Shown here one piece after another: positions 946 to 27,787 of a DNA stretch of 32,923 nt (positions within the stretch are counted from its first letter, which is position 1; each line of letters starts with the position of its first letter). Both the position numbers and the translations under genes were made by a program. Below the pieces are notes generated by a model. That model had not been told where the DNA came from and searched no databases. It was given only the letters and a program-made list of their open reading frames with translations. The stretch is taken from sequence record ON470593. The stretch is one strand, 5' to 3'. The DNA comes from Escherichia phage vB_EcoM-683R1.

Positions 946-1620
946 TTAGTACATGCGTAGCGCGGATTTGGCGATCCCCGCCACGTAATGGATTTTTTCA
1001 ATGTTTTCGCGTGGTACTCTGACTGGTGGATGATCTTCATTTACAGACATTAGATGGAACAGGCCATCGCGTTCGAACAAGAAGGTTTTAACCATGACCT
1101 CACCGTCCCGGGTAACCACAAGTACTTCATCACCAGGAGTGTAGTCGTGGTTGGGTTCGACGATTACGAACTCACCCTCTTTGATTCTAGGCATCATTGA
1201 ATCACCAACACATTTCAGGGCGTATGCATCTTCATCCTTTGTCGGCCAGTATATGAAACCATCACTGCTACCTACTGAATATTGGGTGTCGCTCCAAAGT
1301 CCTCCAACGCCTAGCTGAGTGTTTCCCAAAACAGGTACTTTATTAAACCTAAGAGAAATATACGTTTTTATACCCGTCGCGTCCTCTTTCTCCATTTCTT
1401 GAAGGCTCCTTTCTGCCAGGTCTATTGGTGACACGTGGAAGTAGTCGGCGATCTGCTTTAACGTTGCGTATTTCGGATCTTTCACCTCTCCTGATACCAG
1501 CCTGTGTAGCGTTGGTTGGTTCAGTTGTAACCGACGTGCCAGCTCAGTTATCGAGCTTATCTTGGCTTTGTCCATCAGGTACTTGATGTTTTGAGAAAGG
1601 ATATCGGTAGTATCAATCAT
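946..1620 (-). CDS. CI-like prophage repressor (N-terminal HTH, C-terminal S24/LexA-type autopeptidase)
   Basis: HTH segment ISSITELARRLQLNQPTLHRLVSG; S24 catalytic Ser in GDSMMP and Lys in VMVKTF; divergent from a cro-like gene. Confidence 0.85.
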   Translation of the reverse strand: MIDTTDILSQNIKYLMDKAKISSITELARRLQLNQPTLHRLVSGEVKDPKYATLKQIADYFHVSPIDLAERSLQEMEKEDATGIKTYISLRFNKVPVLGNTQLGVGGLWSDTQYSVGSSDGFIYWPTKDEDAYALKCVGDSMMPRIKEGEFVIVEPNHDYTPGDEVLVVTRDGEVMVKTFLFERDGLFHLMSVNEDHPPVRVPRENIEKIHYVAGIAKSALRMY

Positions 1621-1965: not shown

Positions 1966-4227
1966 ATGTCTGATAACAAACCATGGGGAGCTACGCCCGA
2001 TGAGTGGTTCCACTTCGATCTGGTGTTGGGGATGACAGACAGGCTTTTACCTGTGGTGTCCAATCCCTGTGCAGAACTGTCGCCTAATAGCAAGCTGTCT
2101 CATAATTTCGGCAAAACCCCCAGTCGCTACAATGGCCAACGTAAGGTTGTTGGTATCCCCGACTGGGCTAACTATGTTGTTACGGAAAACGATTTTGCCC
2201 GGTGGTCGAACGAACCCGATTACGGTATTTGCGTTCGTACTGGCGACGGGGTGGTGGCTCTGGACTGCGATATCAATGACGCCGGGATGCAGGAGATCGT
2301 ACGCAATATTATCCTGTCATGCCTGGGGGAACTTCCGCCACGTCGCTGGCGGGCTGACAGTCATAAATGCCTGTACCTGATTGCTGTTGATGGCGACTAC
2401 CGTAAACGTGGTCACCGCCTGGAAGGCGAAAACAAACAAATAGAGCTGCTCGCTAAGGGCCAGCAGTTTGTGGCTTGTGGTACCCATCCGGCAGGCGAAC
2501 GTATTCAGTGGGACTGCGGTCTGCCCGGCGAACCTCTGAAAATTACATCTGAACAGCTCGAAAGCCTGTGGCAGCGTCTGGCGGATAACTTACCCGTGAA
2601 AGACAGCTATACCGCAGGTGCAGGACGTCAGCGTGATCTTTCCTGTGTTGATCCTTCCGCGACAGATGATGTCGCCGACTGGCTTGACGCGAACGGGTGG
2701 ACTCTGTCAGTCAGCTCTGATGGTTCCCGCAATCTGAAACCGTTTCGGGATGAGTCAGAATACAGCAACGGTTGCAGCGAAACATCCATTAAGTATTTCC
2801 CAAAAGGGACGGGGGGATTTGAACAGGGACATTTTAAAAGCATGCACAACACCGATGCGGGGCTTACTGATGCCGACTGGCTGGAAGGCTACGGCTATAC
2901 GCAATCCCTGTTCGAAGATCTCACGGTGGTTGAAGATGGCGATAAGCCTGAATTTACCGATATTAATACAGATATGACAGCTCATTTTCTGGAACGCTTT
3001 ATCTACGTCATCGAGGGTGACCAGGTATGTGATCTTAGCCGACCGCCATATCAGTGCATGATGGATATGAAGTCGTTCAAAAACCTGATGGCGCCTTACC
3101 AGTTCCCGCCAGAAGGGAAAGGGCAACCAACTCCCGCAACCAAACGGTGGATAGAGCATCGGCATAAGAAGATTGCTGAGACGACAGGCTATAAGCCCGG
3201 TGCGGGACGTATTATCGAGCGTTTCGACGGGCGGTTTGAGATAAACGAATTTTATATGCCTGAGCATCCACGTACAGCGGATACAAGTAAGGTGTCCACG
3301 TTCCTTAATCATATGGCGTATCTGGTACCTGATGCCTGGCAGCGCGAGTTTTTCATCGCCCGTCTGGGGTGGATGGTTCAGCGTCCGGAGCGTCGATGCC
3401 CGATTTCTATTCTGCATGTGGCTTCCGCACATGGTACGGGCAGAGGATGGGTCAGCCAGTTAATGGAGCGCGTGCTTGGTCCGTGGAACTGTGCTCGTAC
3501 TCGCATGAAGATCCTGTGCGATAACCAGTTCCATGACTATCTGTACAATACGCTTCTATGCACCATTGACGAGGTGCGCGAAAATGATAAGCGGTATGAG
3601 GTGAACGATAAGATCCGTGACGTGCTGACAGAACCACGGTTTGAAGTGAACCGCAAATATGGCAGCAAAAAAACGATGGATATATACACCGGCTTTCTGT
3701 TCTACACCAACCACTTTGATGCGCTGGCGCTGCCAGAGGAAGACCGACGTATCGCTGTGCTGGGGGGCCCTGACTTCGCCGCAACTGAAGAGCATTACGC
3801 CAGCCTGTACGGTGCGCTAAGCGACAGCGACTTTATCGCCCAGGTGTACTGGTATCTGATGGGCGTTGACCTGTCTCGCTTTAACTGGCAGCGCGCCCCC
3901 GAGACGAAAGAACGCCTTCTGATGATTGAAAGCAATAAGAGCGATGTGGAGGCTGCTCTTATTGAAATCCTGGATAATCCGCCTGTGCCAGCAATGACTT
4001 ATCAACAAATTGTTAACGCAATACTGGCAGAAGCAGGAATGGATGTAGAAATTAACCAGAAGCATATTACTCGCATTTTGAAAGAAAGAACAAAGCGGGA
4101 ACCCGTACGCGTAAAAATTGACGGGTTTGTATATAGGATTTGGATTCTTGTAAAAAATAACGATTTCAGCAACGAAGAATTGCGCGAAATATATAAATCT
4201 TGCGAAATTTTGCAATCTGGATTGTAA
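1966..4227 (+). CDS. Replication initiation protein, primase-polymerase (AEP/PrimPol-like N-terminal domain) fused to a large C-terminal region
   Basis: 753 aa; N-terminal VALDCDIND (DxD) and CGTHP motifs typical of archaeo-eukaryotic primase domains; iteron origin immediately downstream. Confidence 0.7.
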   Translation: MSDNKPWGATPDEWFHFDLVLGMTDRLLPVVSNPCAELSPNSKLSHNFGKTPSRYNGQRKVVGIPDWANYVVTENDFARWSNEPDYGICVRTGDGVVALDCDINDAGMQEIVRNIILSCLGELPPRRWRADSHKCLYLIAVDGDYRKRGHRLEGENKQIELLAKGQQFVACGTHPAGERIQWDCGLPGEPLKITSEQLESLWQRLADNLPVKDSYTAGAGRQRDLSCVDPSATDDVADWLDANGWTLSVSSDGSRNLKPFRDESEYSNGCSETSIKYFPKGTGGFEQGHFKSMHNTDAGLTDADWLEGYGYTQSLFEDLTVVEDGDKPEFTDINTDMTAHFLERFIYVIEGDQVCDLSRPPYQCMMDMKSFKNLMAPYQFPPEGKGQPTPATKRWIEHRHKKIAETTGYKPGAGRIIERFDGRFEINEFYMPEHPRTADTSKVSTFLNHMAYLVPDAWQREFFIARLGWMVQRPERRCPISILHVASAHGTGRGWVSQLMERVLGPWNCARTRMKILCDNQFHDYLYNTLLCTIDEVRENDKRYEVNDKIRDVLTEPRFEVNRKYGSKKTMDIYTGFLFYTNHFDALALPEEDRRIAVLGGPDFAATEEHYASLYGALSDSDFIAQVYWYLMGVDLSRFNWQRAPETKERLLMIESNKSDVEAALIEILDNPPVPAMTYQQIVNAILAEAGMDVEINQKHITRILKERTKREPVRVKIDGFVYRIWILVKNNDFSNEELREIYKSCEILQSGL

Positions 4228-4494
4228 AAAGGTGACGGCTAGGTGACGGCAAAACGCTTAAGCGTCACCTTAAAAAGTATATATAAAACAATGGGAAATG
4301 TGCTAAAGGTGACAGGTGACGGCAGAATTTAAAACTATATACGCGATAGTGTGTATTTTAGGTATTATACGATCGCTTATATATAGAGAACTAAAATCAA
4401 CCGTCACCTGTCACCTAAAACATCTTCAGGCCTTATATGGCGCGCTTTGCAGCAGGTGACGGATATGTAATTACGCGTCACCTAGCCGTCACCC
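4228..4494. repeat. Iteron-type replication origin: about 10 copies of GGTGAC(G/A)G in both orientations, as nested inverted repeats around an AT-rich core
   Basis: Plus copies at 4231, 4242, 4308, 4315, 4455; minus copies (GTCACC) at 4263, 4401, 4408, 4475, 4486. Arms 4306-4322 and 4400-4416 are exact reverse complements; outer arms 4231-4249 and 4475-4493 likewise. AT-rich core 4323-4399. Confidence 0.7.
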
Positions 4495-4542
4495 GGAAAT
4501 TAACTTGAAAAAATTAGCAAATAACTAAATGAGGATACGACG

Positions 4543-4833
4543 ATGTCAAAGATATTCCGCCAATGTATGCCTTACGGTATCCGCAAAACAGCTGAGGGGG
4601 CTTGGGAAGCATTCAACAGAGACTACCAGCCCTTAGGGGAGGCTTTTTTCTTCAAAAGAGCACTAACGCAGGCCACTCGAGATGTGTTGGCGCCACCGCC
4701 GGTAACTCAGCGCGACGACTGTGTATGGCTGTATAGCGATATCGAGCACCCGATGCACTCTGAGGCTTACTGGAAAGCGTATTGCCAGCGGCTTAAACAT
4801 CTTTCTAACCTCAAAATGAAAGATGAACGGTAA
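4543..4833 (+). CDS. Hypothetical phage protein
   Basis: 96-aa ORF between origin and antiterminator gene; AGGA-type RBS upstream. Confidence 0.5.
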   Translation: MSKIFRQCMPYGIRKTAEGAWEAFNRDYQPLGEAFFFKRALTQATRDVLAPPPVTQRDDCVWLYSDIEHPMHSEAYWKAYCQRLKHLSNLKMKDER

Positions 4834-4858: not shown

Positions 4859-5281
4859 ATGCGTGATATTCGACTGGTTTTAGAGCGATGGGGGGGCTGG
4901 GCTGCGAGCGAAGGTTGCAGTGTCTACTATCCACCTGTTTCCGCTGGATTTAAGAATCTGCTACCTGCAACGCAAGCCGGGCGGCTGAAGTGCAGTGACA
5001 ATGACGGTCTGATCATCAGCTCTGCTATGAACTGCCTGAAGAAAAAAGATCCGTACCTGTGTACGCTCCTTGAGTGGCATTACATCCAGGCGATGCCTGT
5101 GAGGGCTATGGGTGTGAAGCTCGGCGTATCACACACTCAAGTTCTGAAGAGGCTCCAGGCTGCAGAGGGATTTATCGACGGCTGCCTGGCTATGCTGGAC
5201 GTGGTTCTGGAAATGGATCAAGCAGTTCAGTCAAAGCCTAAGGCTATCAGGACTTTGCGAAGGAGCTGCCCGGCGGCATAA
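4859..5281 (+). CDS. Late-gene antitermination protein Q (phage 82/21 Q-like family)
   Basis: N-terminal MRDIRLVLERWGGWAA and KRLQAAEGFIDGCLAMLD segments match the antiterminator-Q family as I recall it; sits directly upstream of the lysis cassette. Confidence 0.75.
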   Translation: MRDIRLVLERWGGWAASEGCSVYYPPVSAGFKNLLPATQAGRLKCSDNDGLIISSAMNCLKKKDPYLCTLLEWHYIQAMPVRAMGVKLGVSHTQVLKRLQAAEGFIDGCLAMLDVVLEMDQAVQSKPKAIRTLRRSCPAA

Positions 5282-11507: not shown

Positions 11508-12728
11508 ATGAAATATTTTTTCAATACCCGGCTGGGGGAAACCCGCTATCAGCTGGCTGACGGCTCGTTGCTGTGCAAAGACGTGCCGATAGGACGAACA
11601 GGTAAGCAGCTCTATGGTGCTGATGACCTGCCAAAACTGAAACCCGATAAGTTCGGTGAAATAGTCGTCACGCGTTCTCCTGAGCAGGTATTCCATCCGG
11701 CCACGCTCGCCTCATTCGAAGGGATGAGCATCACGATCCTGCATCCTGAAGATGAAAACGGGAATGTGCGGCTGGTAAATCCCGAGAACTGGAAAGAGCT
11801 TGCTGTCGGGCACCTCCAGAATGTCCGGCGCGGGACGGGTGAGCAGTCTGATTTGATGCTGGCTGACCTTATCGTCAAAGACGAAAACGCCATTCAGCTT
11901 ATCGAAGATGGCCTGCGAGAAGTGTCGTGCGGCTATGACGCGGAGTACGAGCAGACCGAGCCAGGTAAAGCCGGGCAGGTCGATATTACCGGAAACCATG
12001 TGGCTCTTGTCCCCAAAGGCAGAGCCGGAAATCGTTGTGCAATTGGAGACAGAGACACAATGGCAAATCAAAAGAAAAACTGGTGGAACCGCATGCGTGC
12101 AGCCATCAAGACAGGAGATGCCGACACCATGAACGAACTGGTGGAGTCGGCTCCCGCATCGGTTACAGGAGATGAGGGGGATTTGCCGCAGGGCGTTAAT
12201 CTCAACATCAACCTGTCCCCGCAGCAACCACTACCGGACAAAGCACCAGAGATGGGTGGAGGTCCAACCGGCGACAGTGATGATGACCTCAAAACATTAC
12301 TGAAAGCCCTGCTGGCTAAGCTGGAAGGAAATGCCACGGGCGATAACGATAATAAGCCTGACGATAATCCGACCGGTGACGGCGAGGACGATGAAGAGGA
12401 AACCACGATTACTGGTGACTCAGCCTGGCGTGCCGAAGTTATCGTTCCGGGTATCGATCTGAGCCGTAAGATGAAACCGACCGAGTTCAAACGCGAGGTT
12501 CTGGCTTCCGCAGATAAAACGCTGGTTCGCCAGATTGTCGGTGATGCGGATATCCGCAAATTGCCGAAACAATCGGTCGACATGGCGTTTAATGCCGTGT
12601 CTGAGATTGCCAAAGGGCGAAACACCCGCGCCACCACCGGCGATGCACAGCGCCTAAACATGGGCATGACCAGTATCGCTTCCCTGAACAAACAAAACGC
12701 TGAATTCTGGGCAAACCGTAAAGGGTAA
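11508..12728 (+). CDS. Head scaffold / prohead-processing-like protein with acidic low-complexity linker
   Basis: 406 aa; D/E/G/N-rich segment (GDSDDD…GDGEDDEEETT) about 12240-12420; position between morphogenesis and capsid genes. Confidence 0.5.
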   Translation: MKYFFNTRLGETRYQLADGSLLCKDVPIGRTGKQLYGADDLPKLKPDKFGEIVVTRSPEQVFHPATLASFEGMSITILHPEDENGNVRLVNPENWKELAVGHLQNVRRGTGEQSDLMLADLIVKDENAIQLIEDGLREVSCGYDAEYEQTEPGKAGQVDITGNHVALVPKGRAGNRCAIGDRDTMANQKKNWWNRMRAAIKTGDADTMNELVESAPASVTGDEGDLPQGVNLNINLSPQQPLPDKAPEMGGGPTGDSDDDLKTLLKALLAKLEGNATGDNDNKPDDNPTGDGEDDEEETTITGDSAWRAEVIVPGIDLSRKMKPTEFKREVLASADKTLVRQIVGDADIRKLPKQSVDMAFNAVSEIAKGRNTRATTGDAQRLNMGMTSIASLNKQNAEFWANRKG

Positions 12729-27194: not shown

Positions 27195-27787
27195 TGACCC
27201 CAATTTTTGATGAAAATGGACTGGCTACAGTGCCGGGCGATATGCGTTGTTTTTATTATGATGCTGAAACATCTGAGTATACGGGCTGGTCTGATGAATA
27301 TATTAATACTGGCGTAAGTATGCCCGCCTGTTCCACTGGAATTAACCCTGGCGAAAACATTCCGGGAAAAGTGGCTGTATTTACAGGTAAGGGATGGAGC
27401 CATGAAGAGGACCATCGCAATGAGACTGTTTACTCAATCGAAAATGGCGCAGCTGTTACAGTGGATTATATCGGTGCCATCAAAGATGGTTATGTCACGC
27501 TTTCACCGTTAACGCCATACGATAAATGGGATGGTGAGAAATGGGTGACGGATACCGAGGCACAGCATAGCGCCGCAGTAGACGCGTCAGAAGCACAGCG
27601 CCAGTCACTGATTGATGCAGCAATGGCTTCCATTAGTCTGATTCAGCTGAAATTACAAGCCGGGCGGAAACTGACGCAGGCAGAAACAACCCGGCTTAAC
27701 GCTGTGCTGGATTACATTGACGCGGTGACGGCAACAGATACCAGCACCGCGCCGGATGTCATCTGGCCTGAACTGCCGGAGGCGTAG
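27191..27787 (+). CDS. tfa: Tail fibre assembly protein (Tfa)
   Basis: 198 aa; conserved C-terminus …[30 protein letters not shown]; ATGA-coupled to the tail fibre. Confidence 0.8.

Follow-up and report, generated by a model that had tools for sequence, protein, structure and literature searches.

The Pri-Rep-ori of SaPI and PICI elements is a closer precedent for the locus analyzed here than is P4 alpha. For SaPI Rep/PriRep5 and the E. coli PICI Pri-Rep, binding of iterons by the C-terminal domain and replication of rep-ori plasmids have been demonstrated, and the origin lies directly 3′ of the gene, with 6–12 iterons in two oppositely pointing sets around an AT-rich center (PMC9371898, PMC6092414). 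P4 alpha comprises a primase, an SF3 helicase and a C-terminal winged-helix origin binder, in that order (PMC2777425), and pRN1 has an essential cis region downstream of its ORF904 gene (PMC2777425, PMC4234260). The Eru10 replication type of Stx phages was classified by gene content, with no origin or iterons mentioned (Fagerlund et al. 2022; PMC8951638).

We analyzed a 32,923-nucleotide stretch of DNA from Escherichia phage vB_EcoM-683R1 (ON470593), referred to below as the window, in which the gene for a 753-aa primase-helicase is followed by an array of short inverted repeats. The locus shares with SaPI1 Rep, SaPI5 PriRep5 and EcCICFT073 Pri-Rep an apparently self-loading SF3 helicase-initiator and a putative origin 3′ of the gene, in which two iteron sets flank an AT-rich center. 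Like PriRep5, the protein joins primase and helicase in one chain, and its predicted C-terminal winged helix would, as in those systems, read short iterons. Unlike SaPI and PICI elements, the phage has its own virion genes and hence carries a Pri-Rep-ori-like replicon without being a PICI. Its similarity to PriRep5 is at the level of the fold only, the helicase belonging to the DUF5906/NrS-1 branch, and its iterons are 8 bp long and stand in a rigid ten-site mirror layout. Their recognition seems to be specified by the wing of the winged helix.

In lambda, the replication genes lie between cro and Q and the iterons adjoin an AT-rich region, and in the lambdoid O/ori series the DNA-binding part of the initiator and the iterons co-vary among natural alleles. 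The phage resembles lambda in the cro-Q context, in the placement of iterons beside AT-rich DNA and in having an allelic series of initiators and iterons, but it is without an O/P-type initiator or DnaB loader, its initiator being itself helicase and primase. Its 8-bp iterons are mirror-symmetric and intergenic, after the gene, whereas those of lambda lie inside the gene. With pRN1 ORF904 and NrS-1 the phage protein has in common the joining of a Prim-Pol and an SF3 helicase (and a winged helix) in one polypeptide. The hosts are different and the sequences very distant, with the NrS-1 helicase as the best structural match, and ORF904 was not found to bind iterons in a sequence-specific way.

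The primase-helicase gene and its surroundings

The gene order runs from a LexA-like CI repressor (946–1620, minus strand) and Cro (1762–1962) through the 753-aa gene (1966..4227, plus strand), the array and a 96-aa ORF (4543–4833) to the Q antiterminator (4859–5281), which is followed by holin, endolysin, terminase and the other late genes. Between cro and Q there are only the 753-aa gene and the 96-aa ORF. By its published description, the Eru10 type likewise has nothing but a PF09250 protein and Q from cI to the late region (PMC8951638), and in this gene content the module matches Eru10. The region is 100% identical to that of three induced E. coli phages (vB_EcoM-606R2, -689R2 and -611R5), and the deposited element is itself an induced phage. 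It is temperate and complete, with genes for terminase, head, tail, baseplate and lysis, and does not carry stx.

The module was found in 45 of 5426 complete E. coli genomes. An Stx2b prophage (STEC435, L002) has a 98%-identical primase together with a GGTGGC version of the array, and its replication module lies upstream of stx2b (L002, 5469–6704). In an O121 strain the Q gene is interrupted by IS1 (L003, 5000–5697), and in CAU16175 (L017, 1810–4078) and Erwinia tracheiphila (L009) the primase is frameshifted and the iteron array intact. The 96-aa ORF, which has no Pfam or PHROG match, is also conserved in Salmonella, Erwinia, Izhakiella and Serratia. Some E. coli prophages have an unrelated gene of 76 or 139 aa at this position, and Xenorhabdus, Limnobaculum and Avibacterium lack the ORF but retain the array.

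The 753-aa protein consists of an N-terminal AEP Prim-Pol, an SF3 helicase (DUF5906, NrS-1/D5-like) and a predicted C-terminal winged helix. Pfam matches were obtained to PF09250 (Prim-Pol, residues 75–185; E 3e-7) and PF19263 (SF3 helicase; E 6e-14), with no Toprim domain by Pfam, and the protein matched PHROG 1156 'DNA primase' with an E of 8e-87. The best Foldseek match of the AF2 model (pLDDT 84.6) was the NrS-1 helicase region (6k9c, E 2e-18), with further matches to MPXV E5, vaccinia D5, ASFV PrimPol and SaPI5 PriRep (7ola, E 1.7e-8, TM 0.55). A sequence search of the PDB returned the NrS-1 helicase region only, PriRep5 being reached by fold search alone. In the model, residues ~650–735 (codons 3913..4170, plus strand) form a predicted winged helix (elements H660–670, S676–678, H679–690, H698–709, S714–718 and S721–727), which is followed by a terminal helix of residues 736–752 (codons 4171–4224, plus strand). 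Residues ~712–727 (REPVRVKIDGFVYRIW; codons 4099..4146, plus strand) are predicted to be the beta-hairpin wing of this domain, and it is this stretch that co-varies with the iterons.

A protein search returned 463 proteins at E ≤ 1e-10, among which the full-length relatives are the top scorers only; most of the others share just the N-terminal Prim-Pol and have a VapE-type helicase. One such sister family, with proteins of 722–729 aa, includes the E. coli member P0046, which is 97% identical over the N-terminal 44%. Its members carry iteron arrays of the GAAGCCAC, GGAACCAC and CTAGACCAC types directly past the stop codon, flanking a CCCCATATATATATATAAGTCG core (L010, 5170–5400; L011, 4751–4950; L012, 5179–5380), so that the placement of iterons behind the gene is seen again in combination with a different helicase and a different DNA-binding module.

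The complete phage genome that is identical to the window (ON470588, 42.7 kb) also holds a leftward operon upstream of the window's start (L023, 1–9493). It encodes a nuclease (DUF2800, PD-(D/E)XK), an ssDNA-binding protein of the Enc34 type, a DNA polymerase of family A and an SNF2 helicase. Within a lambdoid-style genome these make up a replication set that is largely self-sufficient, and with them the replisome of the phage may for the most part be phage-encoded. The operon also encodes a CAP12/Pycsar-type TIR-domain protein, which is possibly a defence or counter-defence gene.

A mirror-symmetric array of ten iterons

The hexamer GGTGAC occurs ten times within 263 bp (4231–4493), five times on the plus strand (starts at 4231, 4242, 4308, 4315 and 4455) and five times on the minus strand (4264, 4403, 4410, 4477 and 4488). 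The whole 32.9-kb window contains 34 copies, compared with 12.7 ± 3.5 in dinucleotide-preserving shuffles, none of which reached 34. The array starts 4 bp past the TAA stop codon of ORF 1966–4227, within the intergenic interval 4228–4542 that separates this ORF from the 96-aa ORF on the same strand. The preliminary description of this DNA had placed ten GGTGAC(G/A)G-type iterons directly downstream of the primase gene; its coordinates and its count were correct, although the 8-mer consensus was slightly generous, as it fits eight of the ten sites and the remaining two (4262–4269 and 4475–4482) read GGTGACGC.

The left half begins with two direct copies of GGTGACGG on the plus strand, iteron 1 (outer left, 4231..4238) and, 11 bp from it, iteron 2 (4242..4249). 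A convergent minus-strand copy, iteron 3 (GGTGACGC, 4262..4269), faces iteron 2 and is followed by a 38-bp spacer and then by an overlapping direct doublet on the plus strand. Within this inner left doublet, iteron 4 (GGTGACAG, 4308..4315) shares one nucleotide with iteron 5 (GGTGACGG, 4315..4322), which starts 7 bp after it and points into the core. The right half mirrors the left, with iterons 5′ (CCGTCACC, 4401..4408) and 4′ (CTGTCACC, 4408..4415) on the minus strand, 3′ (GGTGACGG, 4455..4462) on the plus strand, and 2′ (GCGTCACC, 4475..4482) and 1′ (CCGTCACC, 4486..4493) again on the minus strand. The five pairs thus named share one common dyad at about 4362.

The nested exact inverted repeats of the preliminary description were confirmed: the inner arms AGGTGACAGGTGACGG (4307–4322) and CCGTCACCTGTCACCT (4401–4416) are exact inverted repeats of 16 nt, and the outer arm GGTGACGGCTAGGTGACG pairs over 18 nt with its complement at 4476–4493. 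A third mirrored pair, 4262–4269 with 4455–4462, is not picked out in that account. Identity of the region with its own reverse complement is 39% and is confined to the repeats, the sequence between them being non-complementary.

The AT-rich core of about 78 bp that had been proposed between the inner arms also stood, at 4323..4400, with 73% A+T as compared with 50% for the window, and is the presumed unwinding region. It contains two non-symmetric motifs, CTATATACGCGA at 4335–4346 and TATATAGAGAACT at 4380–4392, which were constant irrespective of iteron type in an alignment of 13 cores; in conserved form the left one reads CTATATACGCGA(G/T)A and the right one TATATAGA(G)AACT. A GC-rich GGCCTTATATGGCGCGC in the right spacer (4429–4445) is also kept across loci irrespective of iteron type. 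These core and spacer motifs could be read by a conserved part of the initiator, for example at the start of priming, or by a host factor. As they are non-symmetric, the origin would not be truly symmetric and a simple picture of a symmetric double hexamer is incomplete. Outside the array, a palindrome, TTGCGAAATTTTGCAA, lies at 4200–4215 within the last primase codons (CEILQ), and a related TTGAAAAAATTAGCAA at 4505–4520 follows the last iteron, the two bracketing the array; other variants have TTGCAAATATTTGCAA or TTGCAGAAAACTGCAA. Palindromes of this TTGC-N8-GCAA form were not enriched in the window and none was found in the cI-cro region, which speaks against a link to CI or Cro operators.

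No match to the consensus sites of DnaA (one mismatch allowed), IHF or Fis was found in 4150–4560, which fits an initiator that loads itself. Promoters in the region did not exceed shuffle expectation, no intrinsic terminator was found inside the array, and no Rfam family scored above threshold, the sub-threshold matches being only to microRNA hairpins, as a result of the inverted repeats. We considered whether the array acts instead through nucleic acid structure, as a cruciform, a long ssDNA or RNA hairpin or a terminator whose stems are the repeats. A single strand folds far better than its shuffled counterparts (−57.6 kcal/mol, z −8.6), and the changes between variants preserve the complementarity of the arms. 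The complementarity is nonetheless limited to the 8-mers, all five would-be stems share one sequence, and the direct-repeat copies change as well, which a structure does not require; nor would it explain the link to the wing residues described below, and the terminator and Rfam results also speak against it. We judge the strong folding to be a consequence of mirrored binding sites and not independent evidence, and regard the structural explanation as extremely unlikely.

The comparison with P4 bears on whether the array is an origin or an accessory site. P4 alpha and the phage protein have the same order of domains, and both replicons have 8-bp iterons in both orientations in a cluster directly after the gene. 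However, the P4 primase is of the DnaG/Toprim class and that of the phage is an AEP Prim-Pol, neither blastp nor phmmer gave a significant match to P4 alpha, and P4 needs two separated loci, ori and crr. The P4-alpha-like pairing suggested in the preliminary description therefore holds for the domain order and the iterons after the gene, and not for primase class, sequence or ori/crr organization. Its remark that the iterons resemble those of P4 without matching them agrees with the sequences: TCACC is shared, the P4 iteron (from NC_001609) being TGTTCACC and that of the phage C(C/T)GTCACC.

In P4 the iteron cluster right after the terminator of the alpha gene is crr, not ori, which lies 4.5 kb away, and by this parallel the array might be an auxiliary cis site that binds the initiator and stimulates initiation at a separate origin elsewhere. 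We consider this very unlikely, given that in the 42.7-kb genome of ON470588 the array is the sole place where at least three GGTGAC copies fall within 300 bp, that the array owns a 78-bp AT-rich core with conserved motifs for which an enhancer has no need, and that the equivalent array in SaPI/PICI elements is the origin itself (PMC9371898, PMC6092414). Elsewhere in the window, two more GGTGACGG 8-mers lie 180 bp apart on the plus strand of the tail-gene region (27544–27551 and 27724–27731), and single copies occur at 12375, 22581 and 23527. Being neither clustered nor inverted, these scattered copies are probably due to chance or codon usage.

Iteron type and the wing of the primase

Comparison with related prophages, which the preliminary description had proposed, showed that the spacing of the repeats is kept across genera. 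Measured from the stop codon, the sites lie at offsets of 4>, 15>, 37<, 81> and 88>, then, after a core of ~82 bp, at 176<, 183<, 228>, 250< and 261<, and this ten-site layout is nearly invariant in E. coli, Salmonella, Serratia, Klebsiella and Xenorhabdus. The hexamer placed on it is GGTGAC, GGTGGC, GGTAAC, GGTGTC, GGTAGC or GGTTGC, all ten copies being alike. Even among E. coli prophages with primases that are 97–100% identical, the ten sites switch jointly among GGTGAC, GGTGGC and GGTAAC, and nearly all differences between the primases of these close variants fall within residues 703–745.

The more distant loci, with protein identities of 82% to 36%, came from Izhakiella, Serratia, Erwinia, Salmonella, Klebsiella, Arsenophonus, Xenorhabdus, Limnobaculum, Avibacterium and metagenomes, and all of them have the order cI-cro-primase-array-(small ORF)-Q. 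The layout is looser in Limnobaculum (TGACAC; protein 46% identical) and Avibacterium (GGTGGC; 36%). Extra iterons were seen in an Arsenophonus prophage (14 GGTAAC; L025, 3841–4261), chiefly in its left part, which has a duplicated 57-bp unit, and in a metagenomic contig (12 GGTAGC; L027, 3886–4427), and both keep the central ten-site layout.

Across about 60 loci, iteron type co-varies with the stretch of primase residues ~712–727, the only neighboring feature to track it in the comparison of ten E. coli loci described below. The wing REPVRVKIDGFVYRIW is found with GAC iterons, REAVKLKVDGMTVRMW with GGC and (Q)PTDLVKIDGMGYRFW with AAC. In 42 further IMG/VR loci, each recognizable wing class was paired with one hexamer: FVYRIW with GAC (8/8 loci), AVKL..TVRMW with GGC (4/4), T[DEK]LVK with AAC (6/6) and PVRVK/PLRVK plus xT[NQ]RFW with GTC (3/3), together with GQ[AT]GAIKFNGKTERPW and TGC (2/2, L020 included). 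Differences in the preceding helix (RILKER, KLLREK or RVLKER) do not track iteron type. A natural chimera in the C11 prophage (L013) combines a GGC-type wing and GGC iterons with an AAC-type terminal helix, which locates the determinant within the wing stretch.

When the hexamer was forecast for three new wings, two forecasts were right (L024, GGC; L025, AAC). The third, from Klebsiella aerogenes (L026), has a PVRVK wing for which GAC was expected and GTC was found. A rule by which the first strand of the wing sets the hexamer is ruled out by this locus, which has PVRVK with GGTGTC, not GGTGAC; the turn and second strand of the wing matter too.

Part of this co-variation could reflect physical linkage, since the wing codons are only ~85–130 bp from the first iteron. 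The L013 chimera indicates that recombination between the wing codons and the iterons does occur and that the match persists, and a downstream gene that is equally close assorts freely. These comparisons of natural loci argue against linkage without eliminating it. We tentatively suggest, as a possibility that falls short of an even chance, that the loci form a natural series comprising no fewer than six or seven orthogonal pairs of initiator and origin on a fixed scaffold, and that the two central base pairs of the 8-bp iteron (GGT-NN-CAG) are read by the wing and not by the recognition helix, in an RFX-like manner.

The repeats might also be operators of another nearby regulator, such as CI, Cro, Q or the 96-aa ORF, all of them DNA- or transcription-related proteins encoded within 3 kb. 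The preliminary description had named sites for an unrelated regulator, for example Q, as the case that would speak against an origin. Among ten E. coli loci, however, the CI/Cro, downstream-ORF and Q classes assort independently, every class of CI/Cro and of the downstream ORF, as well as Q classes 1 and 2, being found with more than one iteron type. In addition, GGTGAC is absent from the cI-cro intergenic region, and the genera without the 96-aa ORF (Xenorhabdus, Limnobaculum and Avibacterium) still have the array. We give this explanation almost no weight.

A different objection accepts the initiator as the ligand but holds that its winged helix binds for regulation and not for initiation, for instance as a roadblock that times read-through into Q, or in autoregulation. 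The array is indeed flanked by the early genes on one side and Q on the other, in the same orientation, and co-variation shows only that protein and sites match, not what binding does. Yet the phage needs an origin and no other candidate cluster exists, the AT-rich core and the inward-pointing doublets are features of origins, and an operator would be expected at a promoter, of which there is none above chance here. A regulatory role is also less parsimonious, and it is compatible with an origin role; as the sole function of the array we think it very improbable.

Probable origin function and its consequences

We conclude that the array at 4231–4493 is, with a probability of about 0.85, the vegetative replication origin of this temperate phage, recognized by the product of the gene just upstream. 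This reading, which the preliminary description had put forward, draws on sequence comparison: the mirror layout is conserved across genera while all copies of the hexamer change together, only the wing stretch of the primase C terminus co-varies with repeat type, and the alternative of sites for another regulator does not hold, in that neither Q nor CI/Cro nor the downstream ORF follows repeat type and the cI-cro operator region contains no GGTGAC. If it is correct, the protein, or its residues 650–753, would favor GGTGACGG DNA over GGTGGCAG or GGTAACAG.

The following course of events may be envisaged. In the gene order seen here, inactivation of the LexA-like CI would release rightward transcription that makes Cro and the 753-aa protein and that would run through the origin to Q. 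The winged helix would then bind the 8-bp iterons GGTGAC(G/A)G, with the wing (~712–727) discriminating the two central base pairs, as the co-variation suggests. By analogy with SaPI Rep and with the SF3 initiators of SV40 and papillomavirus, the five mirrored sites of each half, with their inner overlapping doublets pointing inward, could place one helicase hexamer on each side of the core. The core would be melted without DnaA, the helicases would load themselves as a double hexamer for bidirectional unwinding, and the N-terminal Prim-Pol would prime, following the examples of SaPI Rep/PriRep5 and the E. coli PICI Pri-Rep. Elongation may be carried out by the family-A DNA polymerase and SSB of the leftward operon. 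Related phages would each have an orthogonal pair of initiator and origin, the differences lying in the wing and at iteron positions 4–5.

No published description of this origin was found in the literature that is searchable without a subscription, and in those papers the module is catalogued by gene content only, as Eru10. The design itself is already known; notable here are a geometry of ten sites that stays fixed and iterons that switch in concert with the wing among at least six specificities. The analysis assigns a concrete candidate origin and a putative determinant of specificity to a replication module found widely among the prophages of enterobacteria. Amplification of the phage genome drives Shiga-toxin gene dosage, and in Stx prophages the origin and its initiator would be a defined target for study. 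The allelic series is a natural experiment on specificity change in a winged helix, in which scaffold and geometry are constant and hexamers and wing differ. If the wing does read the iteron in the way tentatively suggested above, exchange of a cassette of a few hundred base pairs, comprising wing and origin, would re-key the phage replicon, and a handful of wing residues would constitute a readable and possibly engineerable recognition code. Co-resident prophages, Stx phages included, could in that case avoid firing each other's origins.
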